Shown one piece after another: positions 1,836 through 56,398 of a DNA stretch of 64,000 bases. The stretch is from a virus (taxonomy: Duplodnaviria; Heunggongvirae; Uroviricota; Caudoviricetes). The notes beneath the pieces are model-generated. The model was given only the letters and a program-made list of their open reading frames with translations. It was not told the DNA's origin and did not search any database. The DNA lies in IMG/VR virus record IMGVR_UViG_2524023210_000007, positions 16,429 to 80,428 of that record. One strand, given 5' to 3'. The position numbers were made by a program, and so were the translations under genes. Position 1 is the stretch's first letter. Every line of letters begins with the position of its first letter.

Positions 1836-2023
1836 GCTGCGTTCCCAGCGTGTATTGCGCGTTGGAGAGCGCGGTTGACGATCTTGATGCGCTCAAGCTG
1901 GTACTTCGCGCTCCAACTCGCCTGAGCCTCGGCGATCTTCTTTGCTTCGGCATCACACTCCCGCATGAATGCGGCTTCGGCTGGCGTGAGGTGCTTCCGC
2001 CAATTCCACTTCTGCCTCTTCAC
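1832..2023 (-). CDS. small hypothetical protein (~63 aa)
   Basis: K/E-rich non-GC-skewed composition; GTG start overlapping kinase stop (GTGA), stop overlaps Dam start (ATGA). Confidence 0.4.
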   Translation of the reverse strand: MKRQKWNWRKHLTPAEAAFMRECDAEAKKIAEAQASWSAKYQLERIKIVNRALQRAIHAGNAA

Positions 2024-25127: not shown

Positions 25128-25796
25128 ATGATCATCAACATCGATCACTTGAAGCGTTTGGCTGCAGACCCTAGCCACGCACTCGAACTCGGTAAGGCCG
25201 CCGAGCACATCGTATGTGCCGATTTGATCCTGAAGGGGTATCGCTGCTACCTGAGTGATCAGGGCCTCCCATATGATCTCGTCGTCGACCTCAAAATCCG
25301 GCTTATTCGGGTCCAGGTAAAGGCCTGCTGCTTTGCGCGCGGACGCAATGCCGGCCGTAAAGAACTGAGGTTCGCCTACTCGTGGAGTATCCGCCAGCGC
25401 GGGCGAGGTCGAAAGGGAGCGCGCCTGAGCGCCGAGCACTGTGATGTTGTGGCGCTCGTCGCGCTCGACATCGGCGTCACCGCATATCTTCCACTCGAAC
25501 TCTGTGGGCAAGGACTACGGCTCGAGCCGCCTGGTTCGCCGCTAAGCGCTTCGTTCACCTCTGGATCGCGATGGGCTCGAAATGTAGACCAATTTCCTTT
25601 CGAGGAAGCGATCGGAGGTGATCTGTCAAGCTACAAGGCAAGCCGCGGCGCGCACACGCATTGCATCCATGGGCACGAACTGACAGCCGATAACATCTAT
25701 GTTGACGCTCGCGGCAACCGCCTGTGCCGCAAATGCATCAGCGCGCGTAGCAAGTCCTATCTGGAGCGAAAGCGAGCCAAGGGAGCTCAAGAATGA
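25128..25796 (+). CDS. nuclease fusion: PD-(D/E)XK-like N-domain + HNH C-domain
   Basis: GKAAEHIVCADLILKGY...YDLVVDL...IRVQVKA (Hjc-like) and CIHGHELTADNIYVDARGNRLCRKC (HNH). Confidence 0.5.
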   Translation: MIINIDHLKRLAADPSHALELGKAAEHIVCADLILKGYRCYLSDQGLPYDLVVDLKIRLIRVQVKACCFARGRNAGRKELRFAYSWSIRQRGRGRKGARLSAEHCDVVALVALDIGVTAYLPLELCGQGLRLEPPGSPLSASFTSGSRWARNVDQFPFEEAIGGDLSSYKASRGAHTHCIHGHELTADNIYVDARGNRLCRKCISARSKSYLERKRAKGAQE

Positions 25797-26473
25797 GCAC
25801 CTGGTATTTCGACCCGCTCCCGATGTTCGGATTTGACGTAGTGGACGTTGACCCTCCGACGCACTTCCAACTTTATTCCGAGAAGGGCAACAGAAAGTCG
25901 GCATCGGCACAGTACGACATCATGTCGTGGGATGATCTGGCAAAGATGCCGGTTGGCCATCTCGTGCGCGGCAACGGCATCATCACGCTTTGGGCTTGCC
26001 CACCGACGCTCGAGCAATCGCTTTGGCTGTTGAGACAGTGGGGCGCCCGCTTCAAGACTGAGCTCGTGTGGCCAAAGGGGCGCATGACGACGGGCTATCG
26101 GTCGCGCGGCATGCACGAGTCCGTTTTGCTCGGCGTGTTCGGCGACGAGCACCAGATCCACGACGCGCTTTACGGCGTGATCAAGGGTAAAGCGCGCGGT
26201 CATTCCCAAAAGCCGCGCGAGTGGTACGCGCACCTCCGCAAGAAGACGCCGGGCCTCAGCCGGTTGTGCCTTTTTTCGCGTGAAAGCCATGAGGGATACA
26301 CGCACTGGGGCAACGAGGTCGGCCTACTCGACAACGATGTGAAGCTCGCTCGTCAGCAGAAAGAGAAAGTAATCGCGCCGACGCCTCTCTTCGATCGATT
26401 GGGAGAGGCGGCCCCGACCAGCGGATGCATCGAGCCTATCGAATTCGCGCGAGCGAATGAACTGCTGTTGTAA
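25793..26473 (+). CDS. MT-A70-family adenine methyltransferase
   Basis: VVDVDPPT (DPPW-like), ELVWPKGRMTTGYRSRGMHESVLLGVFG, SQKPREWY. Confidence 0.65.
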   Translation: MSTWYFDPLPMFGFDVVDVDPPTHFQLYSEKGNRKSASAQYDIMSWDDLAKMPVGHLVRGNGIITLWACPPTLEQSLWLLRQWGARFKTELVWPKGRMTTGYRSRGMHESVLLGVFGDEHQIHDALYGVIKGKARGHSQKPREWYAHLRKKTPGLSRLCLFSRESHEGYTHWGNEVGLLDNDVKLARQQKEKVIAPTPLFDRLGEAAPTSGCIEPIEFARANELLL

Positions 26474-26492
26474 CCCCAACCGGAGGACTGCT

Positions 26493-27032
26493 ATGACCAC
26501 TGAGCCGCCCAAAAATGAATATCCGCAACTCTCAATCGATGCCGTGAGCATCGCGCTGATCCGTGAGGCAAAACGGGTCAAGGACAAGAAGCAGGGCGAG
26601 TTGCGCGCCGCCTACACCACCGCTGATCTCCGCGGGCTTGACACCGAGGCGGCGAAGGTCGCGATAAAGCTCGTCGAGGACGGCAGCGAAGCTATCGATG
26701 CCTACTTCAATCAATTCAAGAAGGTCGGCGAGTACATCGGCGTGATGGGCAAGGTGTTGGCGCCTGCCCAGTACGAGATGTTCGGGCCCAAGATTGGACC
26801 GGTCCCAGAGGACGAGCGCGCGAAGCGTGAAGGACGTGCCGCCGGCTTCTCCCTTGACCCGGAAACTTCCGACAAGAGCAACCCTTACGACATCGGCTCC
26901 ATCAAAGGCCAGCAGTGGCTCAGGGCCTTCGACGACGCCCGACAGGAGCGCGATAGCATCATGTCAATGCAACCGCCGGCGCCGGAAGGGGCTGCGGCAA
27001 AGAGCGACGGCGAAGAGGACGGCGGGGCCTGA
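26493..27032 (+). CDS. hypothetical protein
   Basis: GGAGG RBS before internal ATG (MTTEPPKN). Confidence 0.45.
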   Translation: MTTEPPKNEYPQLSIDAVSIALIREAKRVKDKKQGELRAAYTTADLRGLDTEAAKVAIKLVEDGSEAIDAYFNQFKKVGEYIGVMGKVLAPAQYEMFGPKIGPVPEDERAKREGRAAGFSLDPETSDKSNPYDIGSIKGQQWLRAFDDARQERDSIMSMQPPAPEGAAAKSDGEEDGGA

Positions 27033-27038
27033 CCCTAA

Positions 27039-27611
27039 ATGCGCATCCTGGGCATGGACATCGCGACGACCACCGGCCTCTGCATGCTGGACGGTGATCG
27101 CTATGTCTTTGCCCGGGCGTTCCACTGGGAAGGGAAATACTCCGGCCAGGTTTTCAGGCACTTCAGAAAGACGCTCTACAAGATCGTCGAGGACAACCGC
27201 ATCGAGTATGGCGCCGCCGAAGAGCCACTGCGCACGGATATCGAGATCAAGGGTAAACCAACCGAGGACAAGCCAGAGCCGGAGTCGACGCGCCCTCCTA
27301 TGAAGACGTTCCAGCGCATTTACGGTCTGTGCGCAATCGCGGAGGAGGTCTTTGAGGCGCACAAGGTCCCGTTCAAATATGTCAACCAGGGAACATGGCG
27401 AAAGGCCTTCACCGGAAACGGCCGCGCAACGAAGAATGACTCGCTCGCCTACGCCCAACTGATCGACAAGACGATCACCTCACTCGACGCCGCCGAGAGC
27501 CTCGGCGTGGCGTGGTGGCTTCGTGGCCATCTCGATCCGCGCTTCGCATCACCGCGCGGCGATCTCTTCGAACCGACGCTCATACCGACACGAAAGGAGA
27601 CGCCATTTTGA
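27039..27611 (+). CDS. RuvC-like Holliday junction resolvase
   Basis: MRILGMDIATTTGL N-terminal RuvC motif. Confidence 0.7.
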   Translation: MRILGMDIATTTGLCMLDGDRYVFARAFHWEGKYSGQVFRHFRKTLYKIVEDNRIEYGAAEEPLRTDIEIKGKPTEDKPEPESTRPPMKTFQRIYGLCAIAEEVFEAHKVPFKYVNQGTWRKAFTGNGRATKNDSLAYAQLIDKTITSLDAAESLGVAWWLRGHLDPRFASPRGDLFEPTLIPTRKETPF

Positions 27612-28726
27612 AAGCCACGTTAGAACACGCCGCACTGTTGAAGGTGCTCGGCAGGGTGCACCGAATTCTGGAACGCCGCAACACCATTCCGATTCTATCG
27701 AACGTCCTTATCGAGGTCGACCAGGACGTCATCAACGTTCGCGCTACGGACCTGGATATTCTCATAGCCGACCGGATGAAGGCCGAAGTTGCGCGGAAGG
27801 GGGCCACCACTGTCCCCGGGCATATGCTGCATGAGATTGTTCGAAAGATGCCGACCGGCAGCCAGGTCTCAATCGAGGTCGATGAATCGAAGTCGCCGTC
27901 GATGATCGTAAAGTCGGGCCGGTCGCGGTTCACTTTGCAGACCTTACCTGTTTCGGATTTCCCCGATCTGTCGGCGGATGATCTGTCGACATCGTTCTCG
28001 ATGCCGGGCAAAGATCTGTTGCACCTTGTCGAGAAGGCGCAGTTCGCGATCTCGACCGAGGAAACTCGCTTCTATCTGAATGGCATCTTCTTCCATTGTG
28101 CTGGCGGCCATAACGCGCCGACGCTCCGTGCGGTCGCCACAGATGGCCACCGGTTGGCGCAGGTTGAAATTCAACTGCCCGACGGCGCTAAGGACATGCC
28201 TGGGGTCATCATTCCGCGGAAGACGGTGGGCGAGTTGTCGCGCCTGTTCGGTGCCGACGACACCATTCAGATCGAGGTATCGAGAGGGAAGATTCGGTTC
28301 TCGGCAGGCGACATCGTCCTGACTTCCAAGCTGATCGATGGAACCTTTCCGGATTATCAGCGTGTCATCCCCGTCAACAACGACAAGGTGTTGAAGGTCA
28401 TTTGCAAGGACATTCGGTCGGCGGTGGATCGCGTCGCCACCGTCTCCTCCGACAAGGGAAGATCGGTCAAGGTTTCGTTAGAGTACGGCAAGGTCACCCT
28501 GTCGTGCCAGAATCCCGATGCTGGCACCGCTACGGACGAGTTGGAAGCGGAGTTCGAAGGCGCCTCGCTCGAGATCGGCTTCAACAGCCGGTACATCGGC
28601 GACATTCTGGGGGAGATCGACGGCGATGTTCTGACCGTCAAGCTGGCTGATCCCGGATCTCCGACCATCTTCACCGGCAGCGACGCCGGTTCGCTCTACG
28701 TCCTCATGCCGATGAGGGTGTCGTAG
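27608..28726 (+). CDS. dnaN: DNA polymerase III beta subunit (sliding clamp)
   Basis: TTG start after AAGGAG RBS; LKATLEHAALLKVLGRV...TIPILSNVLIE, three-domain beta-clamp-length protein. Confidence 0.8.
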   Translation: MKATLEHAALLKVLGRVHRILERRNTIPILSNVLIEVDQDVINVRATDLDILIADRMKAEVARKGATTVPGHMLHEIVRKMPTGSQVSIEVDESKSPSMIVKSGRSRFTLQTLPVSDFPDLSADDLSTSFSMPGKDLLHLVEKAQFAISTEETRFYLNGIFFHCAGGHNAPTLRAVATDGHRLAQVEIQLPDGAKDMPGVIIPRKTVGELSRLFGADDTIQIEVSRGKIRFSAGDIVLTSKLIDGTFPDYQRVIPVNNDKVLKVICKDIRSAVDRVATVSSDKGRSVKVSLEYGKVTLSCQNPDAGTATDELEAEFEGASLEIGFNSRYIGDILGEIDGDVLTVKLADPGSPTIFTGSDAGSLYVLMPMRVS

Positions 28727-28730
28727 CGTC

Positions 28731-28961
28731 ATGGCAGATTGGCGGAAGATCGAGACGGCGATCGAGGATTACTTTCGTCGCCAAGGCACGCCAGCCGCAC
28801 GAGCGGGCGGTGACCTCTTCGTTGGCGCGATCACCCCAGAGGTCACTCATCGAAGTGCCGACGATGGCCACGCGACGACCGTCCTCACTATCGACGAGGA
28901 AGAAGAGATCGCGTTCGTTTCGTTGAGCGATCTCGCGCGCGAATTGGAGGCGCTGAAGTGA
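28731..28961 (+). CDS. hypothetical protein (76 aa)
   Basis: track ORF; stop overlaps GTG start of C5-MTase. Confidence 0.4.
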   Translation: MADWRKIETAIEDYFRRQGTPAARAGGDLFVGAITPEVTHRSADDGHATTVLTIDEEEEIAFVSLSDLARELEALK

Positions 28962-31327
28962 CAGCGCTTTTTCAGGTCGACATTAACCATGCTCATCTTT
29001 TCTGCGGAGTCGGTGGCGGTGCAAAAGGATTTAACAAGGGCCGTGCAAAGGTCGGAAATCTCGTCGCTCGATTCAGATGCCTTGGCGGGATCGACAGTGA
29101 TCCGGCGGCATGCCGCGACTTCGAGTCGCTGGTCGGTGCCAAAGCTTCCTGCCGCGATCTTTTCTCCCGGGAGCAATATCGGGACTTTCACGGCCACGAG
29201 CCACCCGCTGGCTGGGTCGAGTCGCAGCCGGATGATGTTCGCCGTGATTTCGGCAACGAGCATCCGCATATCTGCTTCCTGTCTGCACCCTGTAAGGGCT
29301 TCTCGGGACTGCTGTCTGAGAAGATGTCCGGGACACGCAAGTACCAGGCGCTGAACGGTCTCACGCTGCGCGGCATCTGGCTTGTGCTCGAGGCGTATAA
29401 GGACGATCCGGTCGAGCTCATCGTGTTTGAGAACGTGCCGCGGATCGCGACGCGGGGTCGCTATCTCCTTGATCAGATCGTCGCGCTGCTGCGTGCGTAC
29501 GGACGCCTCGGACAGAGCCGCAAGCGGTTCCTCCTTGTGGCGCGATACGCCGCAAAGGTTCCGCCATTCGTCTACACGCCGGTCAAACACCCGCTGCGCG
29601 GCGTCGGCGAGATCCTCGAGAAGCTTCCGATCCCCGGCATCATCCCGGGCCTCGGCGGTCCGATGCATAGGATGCCGGCGCTGCAATGGAAGACGTGGGT
29701 CCGGTTGGCGTTCGTTCGCGCCGGCGCCGACTGGCGCTCGCTGAACGATCTTGCGGTGCGGGACGGCCATCTCCGTGACTTCGGGATAGTCCCGGACGAG
29801 GATTGGCACAGAGGCGTGCTCGGCGTTCGTCGATGGGATGACACATCCGGCACAGTGACGGCGCGAGCCAATCCGACGACGGGGGCATTCAGCGTGGCGG
29901 ACCCCCGCGAGATCCGCGCCCAGGACTTCCACGGTCTTAGGGTGAATAACTGGAAGGGCACGGCCGCCGCGGTGCCGACACAGCGTAGCCCTGGCTCAAG
30001 CGCTCAATCCGTCGCCGATCCCCGGATCGACGGTCACGAGAAAAGCGTGCAACTCGGCGTTGGTCACTGGGACCAGCCGTCGGCGGTGGTGAAGGGGGAT
30101 GTCTCGGTCGGTACCGGCCGATATGCCGTGGCGGATCCTCGACTCGAGCGCGAGGTCTTCAACTCGACGTTCCGCATCGTCTCCTGGCCGGAGACATCGC
30201 CAGCGATCGCCGGGCCTGGTGGTGCTGGTGGCGGGCTCGCCGTCGCGGACCCGCGTCCGGCGCAGCGGGATGACTACAAGCAAACCAAATATCGGGTGAC
30301 TGGCTTCGATGAGGCCTCCGGCGCGGTCATCGGCGCCTCGACCACCGGCACCGGAGCTTTCGCTGTCGCGGATCCCCGCCACCACAACTGGCATCCCGGC
30401 GCGTCGAGTTCGAAAGAGCGCGTCACGGCATGGGATGAAACGGCGCGTCCGATCACCGGATCTCAGCAGGTGGCGTCGGGTGCCGGAGCCGTTGCTGATC
30501 CCCGGCCAGGCTTTGGGAAGGGAACGCATCACCACGTCTTGAAGGTGACCGGTTGGGATCAGCATGGCGGCACCGTAACGGCGTCAACGCATCCATCTGG
30601 CGGCGCGCTCTCCGTGGCCGATCCGCGTCTCGCCGACGGCACCCGCAATTCCGCGCTGGGAGTCCAGGGCTGGCATGATCACTCCGGTGTTGTAGCCGGC
30701 GAGAGTCATCCGACCAACGGCGCCTTTGCCGTTGCCGACCCACGGCCGGAAGCGCTCTCGGACGAGAAGCGCGATGCCTATCTCACCGGTGGTCACTACG
30801 GTGTCGTGCCTTGGGATGAGCACAGTGGCGCGGTGCCGGCGCACGCTAAAAACAACAACGGGCCATGGTCGGTCGCCGACCCACGCGAGACCGGAGACGG
30901 TCCGACGGACGAGACGGCACCATGGGACAAACTCCCGGCCGCCAATGACAAATTGGTGTGCGTCATCCGTGCCCTGGACGGGACATGGCACAGGCCATTC
31001 ACGACGCTCGAGCTCGCCGCGCTGCAAGGCCTCGTCGACCTCGACGACGAAGAGGAGAGGGCGGCGCTTTCGCTGGATGCGCGCGACCCGGAATGGGTCG
31101 CCCACATCGAGCGGATGAACAACGTGCTGGTGCTGGACGGTGCGTCAGATAGCGCCTGGCGCGAGCGCATCGGAAACATGGTCCCGCCGCCTGCGGCGCA
31201 GGCGATCGCCGGCGTCTTCGGCACCACGCTGCTCGGCGCCTGGTCGGGCCAGACCTTCATGATGGGATCAACACCGATTTGGGTGCGGCCGGTCGCGGTC
31301 GCGCTCATGGCTGCTCAATCCACCTAA
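28958..31327 (+). CDS. DNA cytosine-5 methyltransferase with large tandem-repeat insertion
   Basis: motif I DLFCGVGG, motif IV SAPCKGFS, motif VI FENVP, C-terminal GNMVPPPAAQAIA (motif X); GTG start overlapping previous stop. Confidence 0.75.
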   Translation: MTALFQVDINHAHLFCGVGGGAKGFNKGRAKVGNLVARFRCLGGIDSDPAACRDFESLVGAKASCRDLFSREQYRDFHGHEPPAGWVESQPDDVRRDFGNEHPHICFLSAPCKGFSGLLSEKMSGTRKYQALNGLTLRGIWLVLEAYKDDPVELIVFENVPRIATRGRYLLDQIVALLRAYGRLGQSRKRFLLVARYAAKVPPFVYTPVKHPLRGVGEILEKLPIPGIIPGLGGPMHRMPALQWKTWVRLAFVRAGADWRSLNDLAVRDGHLRDFGIVPDEDWHRGVLGVRRWDDTSGTVTARANPTTGAFSVADPREIRAQDFHGLRVNNWKGTAAAVPTQRSPGSSAQSVADPRIDGHEKSVQLGVGHWDQPSAVVKGDVSVGTGRYAVADPRLEREVFNSTFRIVSWPETSPAIAGPGGAGGGLAVADPRPAQRDDYKQTKYRVTGFDEASGAVIGASTTGTGAFAVADPRHHNWHPGASSSKERVTAWDETARPITGSQQVASGAGAVADPRPGFGKGTHHHVLKVTGWDQHGGTVTASTHPSGGALSVADPRLADGTRNSALGVQGWHDHSGVVAGESHPTNGAFAVADPRPEALSDEKRDAYLTGGHYGVVPWDEHSGAVPAHAKNNNGPWSVADPRETGDGPTDETAPWDKLPAANDKLVCVIRALDGTWHRPFTTLELAALQGLVDLDDEEERAALSLDARDPEWVAHIERMNNVLVLDGASDSAWRERIGNMVPPPAAQAIAGVFGTTLLGAWSGQTFMMGSTPIWVRPVAVALMAAQST
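29820..30910 (+). repeat. intragenic tandem array, 9 units of ~38-40 aa (W-D/H-x-(H)SG-x-V ... G-A-F/L-A/S-VADPR), in the TRD position of the C5-MTase
   Basis: nine occurrences of the VADPR peptide at ~115-120 nt spacing, each encoded GTSGCSGAYCCSCG. Confidence 0.7.
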
Positions 31328-31562: not shown

Positions 31563-32468
31563 ATGCCACAGATAAGATACCGGGACGAAGAGATTTCAGT
31601 TCAGAGCCGAATTGGAGGCTACGTCATCCTTGTCGGGATTGCCGCGTGCGTATTGCTTGGCATGACCGTTCTATTTGGTAGCTGGTACACCGTAGATCAG
31701 ACCGAGCGCGGGGTGCTTTTGCGCAACGGAGCCGTCGTCGGAGTTGCACAGCCTGGACTCGGCTTCAAACTCCCGATGATCGATGGTGTGACGAAGATCA
31801 GCGTCAAGACGTCGACGTACACCTGGGACAAGATGAACTCCTACTCCTTCGATCAGCAGCCTGCTGATCTCAAGGTGAGCGTTACCTTCCGCATATCCCC
31901 CGAGAAGGTATCCGATCTCTACGGGAGGTTTGGAAGTATCGAGACGGCGCTCAACCAAGTCGTCAGCCCGGTCGTGAACCAACAGGTCAAGGTGGTCTTC
32001 GGGCGGTACACCGCGGTGCGGGCGATCCAGGAGCGCGGGGCGCTGAATACGTCGATCAAGGACGCAATCACCGCGACCTTGAAGGACGATCCGATGATCA
32101 TCATCGAGAGTGTGCAGCTCGAGAACATCGACTTCAGCCAGAACTACCTGCACTCGATCGAGCAGCGGATGCTTGCGGAAGTCGAAGTGCAGAAGCTGCA
32201 GCAGAACGCCGAGCGCGAGAAGGTGCAGGCCCAGATCACGGTGACGCAGGCGACGGCGAAGGCCAACGCGATTCGCGCCGAGGCTGAAGCGCAGGCCGAC
32301 GCCATCAAGCTGAGGGGCGAGGCTGAAGCCTCCGCCATCCGGGCACGGGGCGGAGCGCTCGGCGATAACCCTCGTCTCGTCGAACTCGTCCAGGCGGAAA
32401 AGTGGGATGGGAAACTGCCGGTCACGATGGTCCCCGGCGGGGCGACCCCGTTCGTATCCGTGAAGTAG
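31563..32468 (+). CDS. SPFH/band-7 (prohibitin/HflC-like) membrane protein
   Basis: N-terminal TM helix then TVDQTERGVLLRNGAV... band-7 core and coiled-coil tail; AGGAGA RBS. Confidence 0.75.
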   Translation: MPQIRYRDEEISVQSRIGGYVILVGIAACVLLGMTVLFGSWYTVDQTERGVLLRNGAVVGVAQPGLGFKLPMIDGVTKISVKTSTYTWDKMNSYSFDQQPADLKVSVTFRISPEKVSDLYGRFGSIETALNQVVSPVVNQQVKVVFGRYTAVRAIQERGALNTSIKDAITATLKDDPMIIIESVQLENIDFSQNYLHSIEQRMLAEVEVQKLQQNAEREKVQAQITVTQATAKANAIRAEAEAQADAIKLRGEAEASAIRARGGALGDNPRLVELVQAEKWDGKLPVTMVPGGATPFVSVK

Positions 32469-33364: not shown

Positions 33365-33717
33365 CCGATCGGATCGGCTGCTGCATCTCCGGTTGTGGTC
33401 GCACCTTCAAGCGAGAGCCGGGCGAATCCGAGACGACCGTCGTGATGTGCGGCAGGCATTGGCGCATGGGCGATGACGGCATGCGAAAGCGACACAAACA
33501 ACTGCGGAAGCGGGTGCGTTGGTTCGAGCGAAAGTGGAAGACACGCCGGAACGCGATCGAGCGGGCGCCGAAGGTTTGGGCGAAGTTTCATCGTGCCTGG
33601 GAGAGGGCGTGCGCGGCCGATCATGCGCTGTGGCACCGCATCAAGGAAGACGTCACGATTAAGGTCGCCTTCGGCGCCGAGGATGCGCCGCGTCGGCGCA
33701 GGAAGGAATTGGCGTGA
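33361..33717 (+). CDS. Cys/His zinc-finger protein
   Basis: CCISGC...MCGRHW; basic C-terminus. Confidence 0.45.
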   Translation: MTDRIGCCISGCGRTFKREPGESETTVVMCGRHWRMGDDGMRKRHKQLRKRVRWFERKWKTRRNAIERAPKVWAKFHRAWERACAADHALWHRIKEDVTIKVAFGAEDAPRRRRKELA

Positions 33718-34397
33718 CGATTCACTACCACGGCACGCCGCTGTCTCCGCGCTCCGAGCTCATGAAGATGGCTGGGAAATGCTTCTGCGTCCCGTTCTCG
33801 GATGCGCGGGATGCGGAGACATGCGTTTCGCTCGGTCAGTCCGTGATGTTCGACAACGGCAAGTTCGCGGCCCACACCCGAGGAGCTGTCATCGACACCG
33901 CGAAGCTTTACGCCTGGCTTGAACGCTTTCTGGCTCACCCCCATTGGGCAGTTGTAGAGGATGAGATTGACGGAACAGTCGAACAGCAGCGAGCGATGAC
34001 CGCGCGCTGGCCTTTTCCTCGGGCGTTGTCGGCGCCGGTTTGGCATATGGCGCTCCCGATTGATTATCTGCTTGAACTCGCAGACGAATGGCCGCGCGTC
34101 TGCTTCGGCTCGACAATGCAGTATTGGCAGGTCGGCTCCGGCGCGTGGTGCCGGCGCGCCGACGAGGCATTCAACGCTTTGGCGAAGCGCCACCGTTACC
34201 TGCCTTGGATTCACATGCTGCGAGGGATGTCGCTCGCCGGCGATCGCTGGCCATTTGCGTCGGTGGACTCGGTCAACGTCGCTCGCAACTTCAAGGATTT
34301 CAACCTGGACCCTGAGCGCATGGCGCGGCGCCTCGACGCCGTCCAGTGCAATGGCGTTTGGATCGTTCAACCCGAGCAACAGGATATGTTCACATGA
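33714..34397 (+). CDS. hypothetical protein; candidate TGT/DpdA-like transglycosylase (tentative)
   Basis: translationally coupled to queD; C-terminal ...KRHRYLPWIHMLRG loosely recalls TGT ...RAYLHHL...IHNLRY segment; no firm motif match. Confidence 0.3.
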   Translation: MTIHYHGTPLSPRSELMKMAGKCFCVPFSDARDAETCVSLGQSVMFDNGKFAAHTRGAVIDTAKLYAWLERFLAHPHWAVVEDEIDGTVEQQRAMTARWPFPRALSAPVWHMALPIDYLLELADEWPRVCFGSTMQYWQVGSGAWCRRADEAFNALAKRHRYLPWIHMLRGMSLAGDRWPFASVDSVNVARNFKDFNLDPERMARRLDAVQCNGVWIVQPEQQDMFT

Positions 34398-34771
34398 TGC
34401 CACAAACCATGAAGATCGCCGCCACGTACGGTTTCGAAGCGGCCCACCGGCTGCCTTTGCTGCCGAAGGAACATAAGTGCCACAACCTCCACGGCCACAA
34501 CTATCGCATCGAGGTCGTGGTTGAAGGGCCGGTAGACGAGCGTGGCTTCGTAATGGACTACGCCGAGCTCGATGGGATCGTAAAGCCGGTCGTCGATTTG
34601 CTGGACCACAAGTACCTGAATGACATTCCGGGTCTTGAAAATCCAACCAGCGAGGTGCTGGCCATCTGGTTAAAGACGCGAATCTGTCGGGAGTTTGAGA
34701 CAAATGGCGTAGTCAACAAGAATCTGACCATCCGGATTTTCGAAACGCCGAGGTATTGGGTCGAGGCCTGA
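34394..34771 (+). CDS. queD: 6-carboxy-5,6,7,8-tetrahydropterin synthase QueD (PTPS family)
   Basis: AAHRL...KCHNLHGHNYRIEVVVEG... Cys-x3-His-Gly-His zinc motif and PTPS-length. Confidence 0.8.
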   Translation: MMPQTMKIAATYGFEAAHRLPLLPKEHKCHNLHGHNYRIEVVVEGPVDERGFVMDYAELDGIVKPVVDLLDHKYLNDIPGLENPTSEVLAIWLKTRICREFETNGVVNKNLTIRIFETPRYWVEA

Positions 34772-35883
34772 TGACGCGCAACGACACCGCCGAGATCAAG
34801 AAGCGGCTCAACGAGAAACTGGAAGAAGTCTTGAAGCACTTCTGGCCTGGCTTCGTCACGCGCGGGAAGATGGCGTATTGCGCGCCGGCATCAAAGGCCG
34901 ATCTCGGCTCTTTCATGGTTTACCTCGCTCGAGTCGGTAAGCACGACCGGGGAAGCTGGATCCGCTATTCGGCTGGTATCGGTGGAGACGAGATCAACCT
35001 CTTTGCATATGGTCTGACGGGCAATCATCGCGCGACATCGGAGGACGTCTTTGACCGCGCGCGCGAATTTGTTGGTCTTGAGCGCGGGCGAGAGGAGACA
35101 CCGGAGGAGCGCAAGAAGCGGGAGGACCGTGCTGCTGAGGCCGCCGCGAAGCGGGCCGACGATGATCGCCGCGCGCAGGAGCAGGACCGCGCCAGGACCA
35201 CTACTGCAGGCGGCATCTGGGTGGAGTGCGTCGCGATCACCGGTACGTTGGCAGAGGCCTATCTCGTCGACGCCCGTGGAATCCCCGTTCCGCCGCGCGG
35301 CTGGTACGACTGCCTTCGCTTCCACCCGCGACTTCTGCTTCAGCCTGACGAACCGCCATCGCAATTCAACCAGGCATTTCCTTGCTTGGTTTGCCGAGTC
35401 GACGACGTCTTCGGTGATCTGACGGCGATCTGGCGCATCTATCTCGACCCGAAGAAGCCGGCCAAGGCCTCAATACGCGAGGCGAAGATGGGGTTCGGGC
35501 CAGCTGCCGGCGGAGCGATCAGGCTCGGCGGCCTTGCCGAACATATCGGCGCTGCCGAAGGTACGGAGTCCGCTCTCGGGGCAAACGCGCTGATCAAATA
35601 TCGGTACCCGGTGTGGGCGATGATGTCGACGAGCGGTCTAATCGGCTTCGAGGTGCCGATGGAGGTCGACTGGATCACTGGATTCCCGGACGGGGACAAG
35701 CCCTGGAAGAAGGAAGGGAACGACATCGTCCTCGCCGAGCCGGCGGGACGCGCGGCTATGCGACGGCTAGGCGAGCGGGTGCGCGCACTCGACAAGCGGT
35801 TTGATTGCCAACCGGAGCCGCCAATCCGGACAGACTATCTCGACCTTTATGCTGGACGCCGAAGGCTGATCGAATGCAGTTGA
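34771..35883 (+). CDS. primase-like protein (N-terminal zinc-binding-like region + Toprim)
   Basis: AYCAPASKADLGSFMV (CHC2-like, degenerate) and Toprim-like IWVECVAITGT ... DWITGFPDGD. Confidence 0.5.
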   Translation: MTRNDTAEIKKRLNEKLEEVLKHFWPGFVTRGKMAYCAPASKADLGSFMVYLARVGKHDRGSWIRYSAGIGGDEINLFAYGLTGNHRATSEDVFDRAREFVGLERGREETPEERKKREDRAAEAAAKRADDDRRAQEQDRARTTTAGGIWVECVAITGTLAEAYLVDARGIPVPPRGWYDCLRFHPRLLLQPDEPPSQFNQAFPCLVCRVDDVFGDLTAIWRIYLDPKKPAKASIREAKMGFGPAAGGAIRLGGLAEHIGAAEGTESALGANALIKYRYPVWAMMSTSGLIGFEVPMEVDWITGFPDGDKPWKKEGNDIVLAEPAGRAAMRRLGERVRALDKRFDCQPEPPIRTDYLDLYAGRRRLIECS

Positions 35884-36524
35884 TCACGCGAAAGGAGGCG
35901 GCGCAGGCGAACCTCAAACGCTTCTTTACCGGGAAACCTTGTCGCAATGGGCACGTTGCCGAGCGATTTGTCTCATGCAGCAAATGCGTCGCCTGCGGCA
36001 CTGATCAGAATCGCCGCAACGTGCAGTATCGAAAGGACCGATACGCGCGGCTGCGCGATACGCTGATCGTCAACAGCCGAGCTTATTACGCGGCCAACGC
36101 TGAGCGCCTTCGGGCGTATCGCCGGGACTATTTCACAAGGAACAAGGAAGCCTGCTATCGCTCAGCGATCGATTGGCGCGCCCGTAACCGGCGTCGTCTC
36201 CGTCAATACTACCGCGAATACAAGCGGAACCATCCGCTCCACACCAGGACGGTTTGGCACAACCGACGCGCCAGAAAGGTCGGCAATGGTGGCACGCACA
36301 CCAATGCCGACATCCTGCTGATAGTACGAGAGCAGAAAAACAAGTGCGCCTACTGCCGGCGTGCGCTGACAGGACTGCGCTGGCATCGCGATCATATCAT
36401 CCCGCTCGCGTTGGGCGGGACAAACGATCGGATAAATATTCAGGTGCTTTGCCCGCCGTGCAATTGGCGGAAGGGGGCAAAAGACCCGATCGAATTTGCT
36501 CAATCCATGGGGCTCTTGCTTTGA
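35874..36524 (+). CDS. HNH endonuclease with N-terminal zinc finger
   Basis: CAYCRR...HRDHIIPLALGGTNDRINIQVLCPPCNWRKG. Confidence 0.7.
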   Translation: MQLITRKEAAQANLKRFFTGKPCRNGHVAERFVSCSKCVACGTDQNRRNVQYRKDRYARLRDTLIVNSRAYYAANAERLRAYRRDYFTRNKEACYRSAIDWRARNRRRLRQYYREYKRNHPLHTRTVWHNRRARKVGNGGTHTNADILLIVREQKNKCAYCRRALTGLRWHRDHIIPLALGGTNDRINIQVLCPPCNWRKGAKDPIEFAQSMGLLL

Positions 36525-37837
36525 CAGTTCGGATTATCAATGGGGACAGCAGGTCGGTGGTGCGCGGTCTTGAGCCAGGCTCGATCCATGCCTGCGTTTG
36601 CTCGCCGCCGTATTTTCGGCTTCGCGACTACCAAATGCCCGGACAGATCGGGCTCGAGTCATCGCCCGAGGCCTACGTCTCCGAGCTCGTCTCGCTCTTC
36701 CGCGACGTCCGCCGCGCGCTGCGCGACGACGGCTCGCTCTGGATAAACATCGGCGATTGCTATGCTGGCTCCGGACGCGGCGGCAATCCCGCAGCCGGCT
36801 CGTCGACGCTGCTCGGCACGCTCCAATCACAAGAGGCCTCCATGATCGTGCGCGAGCGCTGGGAGATCGGTGCCAGCTCGAGGAAGGCGGCCAACACGGA
36901 GCGGGGCAGCCGCTTGCCGGCCGGCCTTCAGGAGAGGGCGCGCCAGAATAGTGCGATCGGTCGGGCCTGGGAGCCGCCGCCCGCTGGGCTCAAGCAGAAG
37001 GATCTCATCGGCATTCCATGGATGTTGGCATTTGCGCTGCGCGCCGACGGCTGGTGGCTGCGCAAGGACAATATCTGGGCCAAGCCGAACGGGATGCCGG
37101 AGTCTACCCGCGATCGGTCGACCAGCGCCCACGAATACGTTTTTCACCTAACGAAGTCGGAACAATACTACTACGGCTATGAGGACGTGAGGCTGCCGCC
37201 CGCGCCGGAGTCAGTCTCCCGGCTAGCGCGCGCGATGCGCGGCCGCCTTGAAGAAGGCGGTCTCGTGGTCAGCGGCGGCGGGTACGCGCCGGCTGGACAG
37301 CCACCGCACACCGGCGCCCGGCGGCGCGATCGCCAGCGGGGACACAGCCGACGTCATGCGGGATTCAATGACCGCTGGGATGGAATGTCGGTGGCGGAAC
37401 AGCGGGCGAAGGGCGCCGCGCTGCGCTCGGTCTGGTGGGTGGCGCCGGGCGGCTTCAATGACGAATTCTGCACGAAGTGCCGAGCGTTCTACCCGAGCGC
37501 GGAGGTAGGCGACCTAAGAACCGAGAAGGTTGAGCGCGACGGCCGGAAACTGACGCTGCGGTACTGCCGATGCGGGGCGTGCGATAGCTGGCTGAACCAT
37601 TTCGCCGTGATGCCGCCGGAGGTCGCGGCGACGTGCATCCTGGCTGGCGTCCCGGAAGGAGGCTCGGTCTTGGATCCGTTCGCCGGCGCCGGCACCACCG
37701 GCCTGGTGGCCGACCAGCTTCAGCGTAACGCTGTTCTTATCGAACTGAACGGAGACTACGCAGAGATGGCAGCGCGCCGATTCGGCGCGCTGCATCCGAT
37801 GCTGACGAAGGTTGAGCTCGAGCGAGCACCAGCATGA
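36521..37837 (+). CDS. beta-class N6-adenine (or N4-cytosine) DNA methyltransferase, CcrM/HinfI-like, with Zn-finger insertion
   Basis: motif IV CSPPYF near N-terminus and motif I VLDPFAGAGTTG near C-terminus; TTG start overlapping HNH stop. Confidence 0.7.
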   Translation: MTVRIINGDSRSVVRGLEPGSIHACVCSPPYFRLRDYQMPGQIGLESSPEAYVSELVSLFRDVRRALRDDGSLWINIGDCYAGSGRGGNPAAGSSTLLGTLQSQEASMIVRERWEIGASSRKAANTERGSRLPAGLQERARQNSAIGRAWEPPPAGLKQKDLIGIPWMLAFALRADGWWLRKDNIWAKPNGMPESTRDRSTSAHEYVFHLTKSEQYYYGYEDVRLPPAPESVSRLARAMRGRLEEGGLVVSGGGYAPAGQPPHTGARRRDRQRGHSRRHAGFNDRWDGMSVAEQRAKGAALRSVWWVAPGGFNDEFCTKCRAFYPSAEVGDLRTEKVERDGRKLTLRYCRCGACDSWLNHFAVMPPEVAATCILAGVPEGGSVLDPFAGAGTTGLVADQLQRNAVLIELNGDYAEMAARRFGALHPMLTKVELERAPA

Positions 37838-39261
37838 GCAAGAAGCCTGCAGCACACGCTAATAGGCCGACCCAAAACATCCGGGCCGAGGAAGCCGTCA
37901 TCGGAAAAATTTTGGGGTCGGCCGAGACTTTTTGGGCGGTCTCAGACCGGCTGACCGGGGATCAGTTCTCGGTGCCGCACCACCGCGCCATCTTCAAGGC
38001 AGTCCAGGAGTGCTGCGAGCAGGGACCGGGCCCGAGCCTATCGCTGCTCGAGGCAAAACTGCCGACGGAATTCGAGGGTGAGGGCGCCGTCGAGGCGGTT
38101 CTCCAGATCCTGATCGAGAAGGCCTCGGACGTCACCAACGCACTCGATTTCGTCGACGACATCATCCTGGCATGGCGGGAGCGGGCACGTATCGAACTGG
38201 GGAAGGTGGCCACCGCCGCCGGCAAGACCTTCGATGACACCCGCGAAGATATCGACGCGTTGCTGCGTGTAGTCGACGACCACGACCGAGTTCGGCATGC
38301 CGTCCGGGTTGGCGATGCCGCGCGGGCCGCCACCGAGAAGGCCGCAGAAGCCTTCCAACACAAGGGGCGGCGCGCCGTCGGCGTCCTGACCAGGATCGAA
38401 GAGATTGACCTTGCGATCGGACCCCAGATCGGCGGTACCGCCATCACGCTCGCCGGCGCGTCCGGTCATGGCAAGTCGGGCTTGCTGGCGCAGATATTCC
38501 GGAACGGTGCTGCGGCATCGCTTGACCCGTCGAGCGTATTCCCGTCGCTGCTGATCAGCATGGAGATGTCGCAGATCCAGAATGCTTACCGAAACCTGGC
38601 ATCAATGACTGGGATCTCGGTGAGGAAGCAGATCAGCGGCGACTTCAACCAGAAGGAATTCATGGACCTGCAGTCCGCAAAGACATCTCTGGATGCTATG
38701 CCGATCTACGTCCAGGACCGCGGGCGCCTGACGATCGACGAGATCGAGAAGGAAATTCGCATCGCTGTCCGCCGTTACGGGATCAAGCAAGCCGGGATCG
38801 ACAACCTCAAACTGATCAGGCCATCTCGCGACAATTGGAGCCTGGTGCAGACGATCGAGGAGGCGACGGCACGCACCAAAGCGTTGGCGAAGGAACTCGA
38901 TATCGTGATCTGGCAATTGGCGCAACTCACGCGCGATGGCCAGAAGACCGGAAACTGGCGATTCCGCGCCGCCGACATCTACGGCGGCGGTCTCGTCGTC
39001 GAGAACAGCGATCTCGTCCTTGGCGTCGCGGTCCCCATCGTGTGGCTGCGCGAAAACAAGCCGGAGCCGCCATCTGAAGCGAACCCGCGTGGGCGCGAAG
39101 TCTTTGACAAATGGCTCAAGGACATGGAGGTGTTGAAGCACAAGGCTGAATTCGCCGCCTTCAAGGTGCGCGACGGCCGCGGCGAGACCTGGAAGGAAAT
39201 GGACTTCGACGGACCGCGGATGCTGTTCGGTGGTATAGATCGAGAGCCAATTCCGTTTTGA
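37834..39261 (+). CDS. dnaB: replicative DNA helicase DnaB-like
   Basis: N-terminal AEEAVIGKIL DnaB domain, Walker A GASGHGKSGL, RecA-like core. Confidence 0.8.
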   Translation: MSKKPAAHANRPTQNIRAEEAVIGKILGSAETFWAVSDRLTGDQFSVPHHRAIFKAVQECCEQGPGPSLSLLEAKLPTEFEGEGAVEAVLQILIEKASDVTNALDFVDDIILAWRERARIELGKVATAAGKTFDDTREDIDALLRVVDDHDRVRHAVRVGDAARAATEKAAEAFQHKGRRAVGVLTRIEEIDLAIGPQIGGTAITLAGASGHGKSGLLAQIFRNGAAASLDPSSVFPSLLISMEMSQIQNAYRNLASMTGISVRKQISGDFNQKEFMDLQSAKTSLDAMPIYVQDRGRLTIDEIEKEIRIAVRRYGIKQAGIDNLKLIRPSRDNWSLVQTIEEATARTKALAKELDIVIWQLAQLTRDGQKTGNWRFRAADIYGGGLVVENSDLVLGVAVPIVWLRENKPEPPSEANPRGREVFDKWLKDMEVLKHKAEFAAFKVRDGRGETWKEMDFDGPRMLFGGIDREPIPF

Positions 39262-46576: not shown

Positions 46577-48877
46577 CTATCCCGGCGGCCCGTCGATCAC
46601 CACCAGCGCGGTATTCACCATCGTGCCGGCAGACTTGAACGAGCCGGCGGGCAGCGGCCTATATTCGAGAGCGATCGGCTCAAGGCGCGCGCGCTGCCGC
46701 GGGCCGTCGGCGCAGATCGCGACGAGCCGGCCGCCAGGCCGCAAGAACGTGCGGGCGTGCTCAATATGCCGGATATCGTCGCCATCCTTGAATGGCGGGT
46801 TCATCAAGACGCGATCGAACTTGCCGAGCTCGTCCGTGCTGCACTTGAGGAAGTTAGCGCAGTGAATGCGCAGGCCGCTAACTGGCGCACTGGCCAGGGC
46901 CTGCACCAATTGCGGGTTGATCTCGACCGCCACCTTATCGGGCGCTGGACCAATCGCCCGGAGGAGGGCGCCGGTTCCAGCGCTCGGCTCCAGGACACGA
47001 TGATCGGGCTCGATCTCGGCGAACTCGACGACGTCAGCGGCCAGCCTCGGCGGCGTTTCGAACAATTGCGGTGCGACGACAACTTGCACGCCGCCGCCGC
47101 GCAGCACCGCCCGCATGGCCTCAAAATCAGCCGTAGGCGAGGGAGGCGGCAAATCGGCCGTATCCGGGAGAGGGTCGAGCGCGGGCGCATCCGGCAGGCT
47201 GCAATCCAACGCGCTGCGCAACTCGTCGATCTTAACCCATCTCCACCCTTTGCTGCCATTAAGGCAGGCGGTTTTCAGCTCAACAAAACCATCCTCGGTT
47301 CGAAGCACTTCGCAAGACTCGCCTTGAAAAGTGAAGCGGTCGCCTTTGGTGAAAGCGAGCGCGGCCGCATCCAGGGTCATCGCCCGCGGGACAGGGTGCG
47401 GCTCGGCCATGATCTCGCCGACCGTCGCCAGCATGTCGTCAAGATCGACCGCGGGCGGCGCGACATACACCGCCACGAATTCGGCCGGCTCCTTCGGCTC
47501 CGCGGGCCGCGCGATCTTGGGCGGGTCGACGCGCTTTGCATCCGTGATGAAAACTTGCTGTTTCTTCCAGAACTCGCCAGGCACCGGCATTTGGCGGACA
47601 CGGTGCGCGCCGTGGGTCTCGGTCTCCTTCACCTTGCCGATATACGGGAAATCAGAGAACTGCCGGCGCGCCTTCCATTCGGCTTCCGTCATCTCGCGGA
47701 ATCCCTCGCCAGGATAGTTGCAGATCGGCGGGAGCTTGGCGGCGGCCTTCGCCGCGGCGACGTTCTCCGCGCTCGGTGCCCGATAATCGCGGATGCTTTC
47801 CACGCTCCAGCGCGCTTGCTTGGAGCGCGATCCGGCCGGCGCGGTCGTCGTCATGCTGGAAACCGAACCGTTGGCGCCCCTGTTGACCTTCAGCACCGTA
47901 AGCCATTCGTCGCCGCGGCGGGTCTGCACCTGACCGCCGACCGCGAAGGCGAAGCGGTCCGCAAGCGGGTTGGCAGTCGCCTCCGTGCCGATCTGCTCGG
48001 CCAACATCGCCCGTTCATAGGCCAGCCGGTTGTCATAGTGCGCCATCCAACGGTCCCGCCGAGGCCCTGAGCGTTCCAGGCTCGGAATCGCAATGGCGGC
48101 AGCCTGCGCGGCGGTGATGACGTTCCCGTCAATCGCCGACCAAAGGCCCATCGGTCCCTCATACTGCGAGGCCGGCGGGTCGCGCGGATAGTCGGCCAGC
48201 GGAAACGACATCGACCAATAACCGCCGATGTTGGCCACGGCCAAACCGGCGGCGCGCTGCCTCCCGGGGTCCGTGATGCCGGCGACGATCTGCCAGCCCT
48301 TCAGCTGCCTTTCGGTCTCCGCCTGCTGCTTCTCCAGCTTCCGCTTGTCGGACTCAATGCCCTTGATGCGGCGATGACGCACCGCCGGCAACTCCTTATA
48401 CTTCGCATGAGCGAGGGCGCCGGCGGCTCGCGCCGTCCAATAATTCGAGGTGTCCCAGAGTTTCAGCGCCTTCCGCATGCCGTTGTCCATGCGTTCTTTG
48501 TCTTTTCGCGCGCTCTTCTCCGAGTGATGGCCGACGAGGATGGGCTGCCCAAACGCGAAGCGTTCGGCGATTTGGTCGACCGCGTCGCGGGCGCGGTTGG
48601 CTTCGGCCAAGCGCTTGTCGCTGTACTCCTCGAAGCGGTCGGCGCGCTGCTCGGCGCGATCTACAAGGCTTGTGTCCTCGTCGCCGATCTCACCGCAGAG
48701 CTCAATCAGCAAATCTTCCCGGCTTGGCGTCCAGGTCGGCGCGACGAAAAGCCCCTGTTTCGGCGCCCACTTGAAGCCGGCGGCTTTCACGCGCGCGTAT
48801 GTCTCGGGATCGAGGCGCGAGACGGAATAGAGGCGAAGGCGGTTGTCGTCAGGGCAATAAGTAGCAGTCATGGTCAT
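46577..48877 (-). CDS. large fusion protein: ~600-aa conserved N-terminal region (ICE/plasmid-type, DUF3560-like?) + C-terminal gamma-class N6-adenine MTase
   Basis: C-terminus: motif I VLEPSAGTGALL, motif IV NPPF; AAAGGAG RBS 8 nt before ATG (MTMTATY); family-1 repeat pair encoded in-frame as linker. Confidence 0.6.
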   Translation of the reverse strand: MTMTATYCPDDNRLRLYSVSRLDPETYARVKAAGFKWAPKQGLFVAPTWTPSREDLLIELCGEIGDEDTSLVDRAEQRADRFEEYSDKRLAEANRARDAVDQIAERFAFGQPILVGHHSEKSARKDKERMDNGMRKALKLWDTSNYWTARAAGALAHAKYKELPAVRHRRIKGIESDKRKLEKQQAETERQLKGWQIVAGITDPGRQRAAGLAVANIGGYWSMSFPLADYPRDPPASQYEGPMGLWSAIDGNVITAAQAAAIAIPSLERSGPRRDRWMAHYDNRLAYERAMLAEQIGTEATANPLADRFAFAVGGQVQTRRGDEWLTVLKVNRGANGSVSSMTTTAPAGSRSKQARWSVESIRDYRAPSAENVAAAKAAAKLPPICNYPGEGFREMTEAEWKARRQFSDFPYIGKVKETETHGAHRVRQMPVPGEFWKKQQVFITDAKRVDPPKIARPAEPKEPAEFVAVYVAPPAVDLDDMLATVGEIMAEPHPVPRAMTLDAAALAFTKGDRFTFQGESCEVLRTEDGFVELKTACLNGSKGWRWVKIDELRSALDCSLPDAPALDPLPDTADLPPPSPTADFEAMRAVLRGGGVQVVVAPQLFETPPRLAADVVEFAEIEPDHRVLEPSAGTGALLRAIGPAPDKVAVEINPQLVQALASAPVSGLRIHCANFLKCSTDELGKFDRVLMNPPFKDGDDIRHIEHARTFLRPGGRLVAICADGPRQRARLEPIALEYRPLPAGSFKSAGTMVNTALVVIDGPPG
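47123..47174 (-). repeat. boundary repeat family 1 pair embedded in-frame inside the fusion ORF
   Basis: encodes ...LDPLPDTADLPPPSPTADFEAMRAV... just upstream of the MTase domain; coordinates approximate. Confidence 0.5.
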
Positions 48878-48896
48878 AGTGGTTGCTCCTTTCATC

Positions 48897-48912
48897 TTGC
48901 GCACAATCGCGC
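48897..48912 (-). repeat. palindromic repeat family 2 (TTGCGCACAATCGCGC) upstream of RBS
   Basis: 12-28 nt upstream of the 46577..48877 start, directly 5' of its SD. Confidence 0.55.
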
Positions 48913-54083: not shown

Positions 54084-54593
54084 ATGACCGAAAAACCGGC
54101 AGAGCCGAAAAAGCGGAAGACGCGGAAGCGAGCAACGCGGAAACGGAATGCCGGCGGGCGGCCATCCTGGAAGCCGACCCTCGACGATCGGACCACGATC
54201 GAGCGGATGAAGTTCTGCGGCGAGTCCGACGCCACGATTGCGCGGTCGCTTGGTGTCGACGTCGACACGATGCGGAAACATTGCCCGGAAGAACTCGCGA
54301 ACGGGTACGCGAACCGCCGGCGCGAGGTGGTCAACCTGCTCTTCGAGGCGGCGAAAGCCAAGAACACCTCGGCGATCAAGCGGCTCGACGACATGGGGCG
54401 GGTTGCCGGTGCGGCCGCAGCGGTAAACGGTCGCGGCGGGAAAATGCCGAAGCCGGAGAAAGCGCCGGTCGCCGAAAAGCCTGGCAAAAAGGAACTGCGG
54501 AAACAGGCGGCTGCCCAGGTAAGCGGGGTCTACGCGCCGCCGCCGCCGCCGAGGCTGGCTGTCGATAACACCAAGGCCGCGGGCGGCGAGTGA
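54084..54593 (+). CDS. terminase small subunit (HTH-containing)
   Basis: position immediately 5' of terL; DDRTTIERMKFCGESDATIARSLGVDVDTMRKH HTH; basic N-terminus. Confidence 0.5.
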   Translation: MTEKPAEPKKRKTRKRATRKRNAGGRPSWKPTLDDRTTIERMKFCGESDATIARSLGVDVDTMRKHCPEELANGYANRRREVVNLLFEAAKAKNTSAIKRLDDMGRVAGAAAAVNGRGGKMPKPEKAPVAEKPGKKELRKQAAAQVSGVYAPPPPPRLAVDNTKAAGGE

Positions 54594-56335: not shown

Positions 56336-56398
56336 TGCCGGCGGCCGCGGTCGCTGCCCGTTGGTCTCCCCCGCAACTCATCAGGACAAAAATCGCCC

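Follow-up and report, generated by a model that had tools for sequence, protein, structure and literature searches.

Introduction

That a single catalytic core of a C5-cytosine DNA methyltransferase (C5-MTase) can serve several target-recognition domains (TRDs) has been known since the 1980s. Multispecific enzymes of this type include M.SPRI, M.Phi3TI, M.Rho11sI, M.H2I and M.SPBetaI of Bacillus phages, whose TRDs Trautner and co-workers reportedly put at about 40 amino acids (aa) each in 1996, as well as M.BssHII, with up to five specificities. We know of no solved structure of a multispecific C5-MTase. Here we analyze a phage gene for a C5-MTase with nine tandem units in its variable region, located in a 64,000-nucleotide (nt) stretch of a Caudoviricetes genome (IMG/VR record IMGVR_UViG_2524023210_000007, positions 16,429 to 80,428). 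This whole stretch is called the window, and positions refer to it.

M.BceSV has also been named among the multispecific C5-MTases (PMC3526280). A further group, here called Paracoccus/ARM81-type, comprises JCM7686_0772, JCM7686_2655, Pyei1_p05, phi2LM21_p23 and ARM81ld_p31; these partly protect DNA against many enzymes that are sensitive to cytosine methylation (PMC3925955, PMC6536676). For the Paracoccus enzymes, the partial protection at many unrelated sites was termed "relaxed" specificity by the authors (PMC3925955), and a later summary states that the cytosine in CC is modified (PMC5537653). The publications consulted on these enzymes make no mention of repeats. Among monospecific enzymes, the relevant reference is M_MAGs_10, whose closest characterised homolog is M.Bbr28III (RTCGAY) (PMC11954522).

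The gene considered here is an open reading frame (ORF) of 789 codons with a GTG start at 28958-31327 (+ strand). A first, sequence-only reading had described it as a C5-MTase in which nine repeats ending in VADPR replaced the TRD. The profile comparisons reported below indicate instead that the TRD core was multiplied, and that the window protein belongs to a large family from proteobacterial phages and prophages. We estimate at about 50% the probability that the gene is a much-expanded multi-TRD orphan phage methylase for anti-restriction, a reading based on sequence and on analogy with the Bacillus-phage enzymes.

Repeat array of the window protein

Nine VADPR pentapeptides end at aa 317, 356, 395, 433, 474, 516, 557, 596 and 643, i.e., at a spacing of 38-47 aa. 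Only 0.0028 copies are expected from composition and the maximum in 20,000 shuffles was one. The array lies between motifs VIII and IX and covers aa 276-643 (368 aa; 1104 nt, 29783-30886), in agreement with the ~1.1 kb given by the sequence-only reading. Alignment of the nine units of about 40 aa, which that reading had proposed as a check, placed them in a single register with pairwise identities of 24-49% (mean 35%), confirming that they are homologous.

The units are not, as had been supposed, a regular repeat of one motif. They belong to different conserved types, defined below, and follow each other in the order A-I-G-D-C-E-F-A-B, with type A present twice (units 1 and 8). All are on the + strand. 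Unit 1 (type A, aa 276-317, 29783-29908) occupies the site of the single TRD core in monospecific enzymes. It is followed by unit 2 (type I, aa 318-356, 29909-30025; loop TQRSPGSSAQS), unit 3 (type G, aa 357-395, 30026-30142; loop KGDVSVGTGRY), unit 4 (type D, aa 396-433, 30143-30256; FRIV.W..SPAIAGPGGAGGGLA) and unit 5 (type C, aa 434-474, 30257-30379; KYRVT..DEASGAVIGASTTGTGAF), the last being of a type that also occurs in orf41 of phage phiCTX. Units 6 (type E, aa 475-516, 30380-30505), 7 (type F, aa 517-557, 30506-30628) and 8 (type A, aa 558-596, 30629-30745) lead to unit 9 (aa 597-643, 30746-30886), which is of type B, the type that closes the array in 114 of 120 relatives. The units are rich in G, A, S, T and P (G 13%, A 12.8%, S+T 14.7%, P 7.3%) and contain few hydrophobic residues.

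At the DNA level the VADPR codons follow the consensus GTNGCNGAYCCNCG; the pattern GTSGCSGAYCCSCG given by the sequence-only reading fits five of the nine copies but is not the consensus. Tandem Repeats Finder detected no tandem repeat in the array when run on the gene, and DNA similarity between units is confined to patches of 19-33 nt around the VADPR codons (63-84% identity). The idea that the array is recombinogenic is therefore not supported within the gene at the DNA level, but whole units are gained, lost and replaced in the family, as described below.

Relationship of the units to the canonical TRD core

A profile of 34 columns was built from 88 diverse units and has the consensus h-G-V-x-x-W-D-E-P-a-G-T-V-T-G-x-x-x-P-x-N-G-a-F-S-V-A-D-P-R. 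Three segments form a common scaffold (h-G-V-x-x-W, D-E-P-x-G-T-V-T and G-x-x-x-V-A-D-P-R), and the loop between T-V-T and G is type-specific, as is the N-terminal spacer of the unit. The profile found no match in the PDB or Pfam, and a Pfam scan of the nine single units gave none either. The profile does align with SVYGRMEWDKPSPTITTQCFGFGNGRF of the canonical monospecific C5-MTase printed in PMC11954522 (E 2.6e-4). Of 120 relatives gathered for that enzyme, 51 were aligned; in hhalign, the unit profile matched the profile of these 51 enzymes with a probability of 70.9% and an E-value of 3.8e-5, the matched segment being the canonical TRD core SVYGRMEWDxPxPTITTQCFGyGNGRF. The VADPR family is also colinear with the ~360-aa monospecific enzymes from motif I through the first unit (hhalign probability 99.3%, E 3.5e-20), and BLASTP connects it to the canonical monospecific enzyme at E 5e-7.

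By these alignments the units are diverged copies of the canonical TRD core (YG..W-D-x-P-x-x-T-V-T...G....HP..R). The TRD has thus not been replaced; its core element, T-V/I dipeptide included, has been multiplied. In our reading this dipeptide would correspond to the "TL" conserved in C5-MTase variable regions, an equivalence suggested by the reported work of Kumar and colleagues from 1994 and by recognition loop II of M.HhaI. In the canonical enzymes the TRD core continues directly into GHPEQDR-AISLREAALIQTFP (motif IX). In the VADPR family each unit ends in VADPR, and a near-invariant DGTWHRP-FTTLELAALQ caps the array.

Unit types and turnover in the VADPR family

The VADPR family contains more than 6,590 proteins at E<=1e-5, a lower bound. 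A search with the unit profile alone yielded proteins of 3-12 units that group into 537 clusters at 50% identity, so the expectation that array length varies among relatives was borne out by the comparison. All unit-bearing proteins checked were PF00145 methylases. Prophages carrying members were found in Bradyrhizobium, Mesorhizobium, Rhizobium, Ensifer, Agrobacterium and other hosts, and phage members include gp34 of Sinorhizobium phage PBC5, orf41 of Pseudomonas phage phiCTX, and proteins of Pseudomonas phage LKA5 and an Achromobacter phage. The PBC5 and phiCTX proteins are 53 and 48% identical to the window protein over at least 96% of the length, and unit types of the window protein recur in both (8 units in PBC5 gp34, 5 in phiCTX orf41). 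Three members of 927-1203 aa (P0124, P0200 and P0246) have Hint/LAGLIDADG intein domains inserted into the N-terminal catalytic part, before the PF00145 match, and the canonical PCxxFS string of motif IV was not found in these proteins.

The sequence-only reading had remarked that such an array had not been seen before. This architecture is clearly not rare, but we found no description of the family or its repeats in the literature searched, the coverage of which was incomplete, so that absence of a description is not proven. The family is apparently undescribed and is distinguished by its module number (3-12), its regularity, its cassette-like turnover and its size. Annotations of its members go no further than "DNA cytosine methyltransferase" or "hypothetical protein", and the unit is covered by no Pfam model.

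Clustering of 934 units from 120 proteins yielded about 16-20 types. Over the 25 residues before VADPR, identity is 0.53-0.75 within a type and 0.28 on average between types. The within-type values resemble those for the catalytic cores of the paired proteins (0.61-0.74). A type is defined by positions -17 to -10, i.e., the loop from T-V-T to the invariant Gly, and by -8/-7; these are nearly fixed within a type, whereas positions -26 and -24 to -22 vary even there.

Among the 120 proteins, 109 different unit architectures were counted. Pairs with 90-96% identical cores differ in their arrays, for example NKDCFEB and AJGDCEB at 96%, and in an alignment of nine sequences all array indels were whole units, in register. 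Turnover of the repertoire has thus clearly involved gain, loss and replacement of whole units. The order of units is mostly kept: D precedes C in 79 of 80 cases, with looser preferences for C/E (47:11) and E/F (15:12).

Catalytic core and state of the window gene

The methylase ORF overlaps the stop of an upstream 76-aa ORF by 4 nt. Its identification as a C5-MTase, made by the sequence-only reading from motifs I, IV, VI and X, agrees with both motifs and fold. Motif I, for S-adenosylmethionine binding, is FCGVGGG (aa 15-21, 29000-29020), motif IV with the catalytic Cys112 is PCKGFS (aa 111-116, 29288-29305) and motif VI is ENVPR (aa 158-162, 29429-29443). Motif VIII, which had been overlooked, is QSRKR (aa 186-190, 29513-29527). 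After the array, the near-invariant terminal piece DGTWHRP is fused to motif IX, FTTLELAALQG (aa 681-691; 30977-31030 for the whole piece), and motif X is GNMVPP (aa 739-744, 31172-31189). All of these lie on the + strand, and their order is that of canonical PF00145 enzymes (I, IV, VI, VIII, IX, X). Residues invariant in 120 relatives are G17/G19, P111 and C112, E158/N159/V160, Q186/R188/R190 and G739/N740/P743. A conserved pre-array region (aa 197-275, 29546-29782, + strand; LRGVGEILEKLP...MHRMPALQWKTWVRLAFV.AG.DWRSLN) is colinear with the N-terminal part of the canonical variable region.

The protein matches phrog_32684 (2.1e-83) and phrog_116, "DNA methyltransferase" (3.7e-42). No MTase was found by sequence in the PDB with phmmer or hmmsearch, whether the query was the whole protein, the last unit with the C-terminus, or a profile of the units or of the family. 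AlphaFold models were generated for the window protein (120-sequence alignment) and for P0181, an intact relative with four units (84 sequences). The catalytic domain of the window protein is predicted with confidence, with a predicted local distance difference test score (pLDDT) of ~95 for aa 1-170, and Foldseek matched its model to DNMT1, MET1, M.HaeIII, M.HhaI and Dnmt2 (E 5e-8 to 1e-5). The P0181 model matched MET1 (E 2.9e-13) and M.HaeIII 1dct (E 2.1e-9), the latter with a root-mean-square deviation of 3.0 over 232 columns. By motifs and modeled fold the window protein is a C5-MTase.

Equally absent from the earlier description was a 42-bp in-frame deletion between Y181 and G182 (junction at 29498-29503, + strand). 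It removes 14 aa, GYAVAETTHDCGEI, forming the motif VII strand and turn between motifs VI and VIII. The window protein alone is without this segment, which is present in all 119 aligned relatives, and conservation reaches 90% or more in eight of the columns lost. In the P0181 model the segment is a core beta-strand (E180-188, pLDDT 96-97). The loss coincides with a low PF00145 score of 17.9 bits, below the gathering cut-off of 22, whereas intact relatives score 37.9-73.5 bits. A 3-nt microhomology, CGG, is found at both deletion ends. Three contigs carry the deleted allele, which rules out an assembly error. The exact window protein is found on a 214-kb contig shared with the protein record of Bradyrhizobium sp. 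Ai1a-2, where the only product given by NCBI for the locus has 667 aa and begins at M123. An ortholog of 803 aa from Bradyrhizobium cenepequi, 96% identical, retains the segment and has the same nine units.

The deletion is recent, and since a core strand is lost here that is intact in so close an ortholog, the window copy is probably inactive or crippled. A decaying pseudogene in a cryptic prophage, with an array that has no present function here, would account for the missing near-invariant strand, the score under the Pfam threshold and the shortened NCBI product. We regard this as the probable state of the copy, although the 2.37-kb frame is still fully open and the array is 96% identical to that of the intact ortholog, so that decay must be very recent at most. 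Such decay explains the condition of this allele but not the purpose of the architecture, and it is compatible with a multi-TRD function of the family. As a recently damaged allele, the window gene is itself a poor experimental subject.

Structure prediction of the array

The sequence-only reading had suggested a solenoid and an AlphaFold run. In both models the catalytic core and the C-terminal region with motifs IX-X are confident. The array has pLDDT values of 27-58, below 50 over most of its length, and almost no secondary structure, so a solenoid or propeller is unsupported. Possibly the units are mobile, or take up a fold only when bound to DNA. A WD40-type beta-propeller, considered because of the W-D in the units and the 7-9 units of ~40 aa, was rejected since the GH-to-WD spacing is wrong and the strands are not predicted.

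Prophage neighborhood

The window is a prophage, in which the methylase is an orphan located in the replication/early module. No nuclease gene adjoins it in the window, and the same holds for PBC5 and phiCTX. Upstream on the + strand are an MT-A70 methylase (25793-26473, 65 bits), a RuvC-like resolvase (27039-27611) and, directly before the methylase, a DnaN sliding clamp (27512-28726; phrog_947, 6e-95). Because 100 nt of the dnaN ORF (404 aa) are shared with the resolvase ORF, the true start of dnaN probably lies downstream of the listed one; the gene as called in Logan has 372 aa. Immediately downstream is an SPFH/Band-7 membrane protein (31563-32468, +; phrog_200, 3e-59), which looks like a moron insertion because it is absent from the syntenic prophage of Bradyrhizobium sp. 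C9. That prophage has the same methyltransferase set around its copy. DnaN adjoins the methylase in the window and in strain C9.

Further along are a 227-aa tRNA-guanine-transglycosylase-like protein (33714-34397, +; phrog_887 "queuine tRNA-ribosyltransferase", 5e-30; no Pfam family), a primase (34756-35883), an N6_N4_Mtase methylase (36254-37837, +; 132 bits, phrog_67), DnaB (37834-39261), a 775-aa methyltransferase with DUF3560 and MTS domains (46577-48904, -), and terminase and portal (54590-58039). Perhaps the 227-aa protein is DpdA-like and acts in 7-deazaguanine modification of DNA, in which case the module would have a further modification function. Together with the C5 methylase, the three other methyltransferase genes make four in one element. 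A 577-aa ORF at 2020-3753 (-) has a weak, sub-threshold Pkinase match (20 bits, cut-off 31.7).

Proposed function and alternatives

We propose that a canonical TRD core element was tandemly multiplied and then diverged, which enlarged the variable region. The units would act as alternative target-reading modules serving one catalytic core, as inferred from the multispecific Bacillus-phage enzymes, and with such readers a single enzyme would methylate many different short GC-rich sites. Replicating phage DNA would thereby be protected from many host restriction enzymes. The repertoire of units changes more rapidly than the catalytic core, whole units being gained, lost or replaced. The family would also account for the escape of temperate phages from many Type II systems, in GC-rich soil bacteria and in Pseudomonas, by means of one gene.

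In a stronger form of this proposal, each of the ~16-20 unit types would be an autonomous mini-TRD of ~40 aa with its own target. The enzymes would then amount to natural combinatorial libraries with 3-12 specificities apiece, whose cassettes are shuffled in the arms race against host restriction systems. We put this forward tentatively, with indirect support from the discreteness and conservation of the unit types and from their cassette-like turnover, and rate it below an even chance. If it is true, these are by far the most multispecific DNA methyltransferases known, and the loop from T-V-T to G-x-x-x-VADPR would hold a compact "recognition code" that could be read from methylomes and reused to program cytosine methylation. 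Being small, the unit would also lend itself to engineering. With up to 12 small, delimited and separately conserved TRD-core modules, this large phage family makes the question of how several TRDs share one core directly testable.

Several points weigh against the multi-TRD interpretation. The unit matches only the C-terminal part of the canonical variable region, and it may thus be an incomplete, non-autonomous TRD; the unit profile has no detectable similarity to the SPR or H2 TRDs, to any PDB chain or to Pfam. The actual DNA contacts could be constant ones, made by the near-invariant pre-array region and by the DGTWHRP piece. AlphaFold neither folds nor docks the units, and the models support neither a TRD-like fold nor reach to the catalytic cleft. 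Descent from a single ancestral array that works as a whole would also fit the mostly conserved order of the units. Clustering in itself lowers within-type entropy, though it does not explain where in the unit the conserved positions are located. Finally, methylation data for members of the VADPR family were not found in the literature searched.

One alternative is that the units are individually weak, low-specificity DNA-binding modules which jointly raise affinity or processivity. Most cytosines in a very short context (CC, GC or CG) would be methylated, and units would not correspond one-to-one with motifs. The G/A/S/T/P-rich composition with few hydrophobic residues, the predicted lack of stable structure, and the analogy with the "relaxed" Paracoccus enzymes (PMC3925955), for which modification of the cytosine in CC was stated (PMC5537653), all fit such a tether. 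On the other hand, the type-specific loops are as conserved as the catalytic core from Pseudomonas to Bradyrhizobium, and the repertoire turns over rapidly between near-identical cores, which suggests that each unit type has its own selected function. We consider the tether rather unlikely.

A role outside DNA reading is less probable still. The array would then be a flexible linker or an interaction platform for the replisome, the sliding clamp or packaging proteins, and specificity would come from the pre-array region, the last unit and the terminal piece. Low array pLDDT, a dnaN gene next to the methylase in both the window and strain C9, and the near-invariant flanks with a last unit that is nearly always of type B are in line with this. 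However, the units clearly copy the TRD core including its T-V/I dipeptide, dnaN is not adjacent in PBC5 or phiCTX, and a linker has no need for 16-20 conserved types. Least plausible is that the units build a rigid solenoid, beta-propeller or beta-helix wrapped around DNA or tracking along it: the regular ~40-aa period and the conserved small hydrophobic positions (G-V, W, T-V, F/L-x-V-A) would fit three short strands per unit, but repeat folds are usually predicted with confidence, whereas here two models from 84-120 sequences left the array mostly below pLDDT 50 and nearly without secondary structure, units are freely replaceable and number 3 to 12, and their layout is not that of WD40.

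Comparison with known systems

The likeness to multispecific phage C5-MTases noted by the sequence-only reading is apt. Like the Bacillus-phage enzymes, the VADPR methylases are phage-borne orphans with a single catalytic core and tandem TRD-sized modules between motifs VIII and IX, and the SPR variable region shares a short pattern with the VADPR units (P-T-I-T-T...G / S-H-T-L-S-A / P-A-F-T-V). TRD homology was not detected when the unit profile was compared by hhalign with M.SPRI (probability 0.3%) and M.H2I (0.1%). Against 2-3 active TRDs in the Bacillus-phage enzymes, the VADPR family has 3-12 units per protein, with an invariant VADPR end and a strong common scaffold, and its hosts are Proteobacteria.

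The Paracoccus/ARM81-type enzymes are likewise orphan C5-MTases of phages and prophages, 550-700 aa long and often located in the replication module. In Pyei1_p05, phi2LM21_p23 and ARM81ld_p31 the variable region contains 4-8 tandem modules of 33-42 aa built on D-E-P-x-x-T-I-T-A. A tandem array of TRD-core modules is thus common to both groups as an architectural likeness, not as family membership. ARM81-type enzymes are without VADPR and have SPDCKHFS at motif IV, in contrast to SAPCKGFS in the VADPR family; BLASTP of P0002 against Pyei1_p05 gave a best E of 0.11, and hhalign of the unit profile against ARM81ld_p31 and Pyei1_p05 gave nothing significant. The phages phiARM81ld, phi2LM21 and RR1-A were in the collection searched but, by organism tally, absent from the matches of the window protein. 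The ~700-aa enzymes of Paracoccus, phi2LM21 and RR1-A were accordingly rejected as members of the VADPR family, tblastn and BLASTP both placing them in a different one. ARM81-type loci were located at 25673-27337 (-) in L008, 465-2309 in L009 and 477-2498 in L010, and the ARM81-type family has 258 phage records at E<=1e-10, many of them from Gordonia and Mycobacterium phages.

Compared with the canonical monospecific enzymes (M_MAGs_10 of PMC11954522 and its 120 relatives), which have the core YGRMEWDxPxPTITTQCFGxGNGRFGHPxQDR, VADPR is the counterpart of HPxxDR and the terminal DGTWHRP-FTTLE that of the canonical GHPEQDR-AISLRE, within the longer stretch GNGRFGHPxQDR-AISLREAA. Whereas a canonical enzyme of ~360 aa has one TRD core fused to motif IX, the VADPR family has 3-12 diverged copies inserted. 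The closest comparison is with the phage relatives, including PBC5 gp34 and phiCTX orf41, which belong to the same family, are 44-53% identical over more than 95% of the length and use the same unit types. They have 5-8 units, compared with nine in the window protein, and their catalytic cores are intact.

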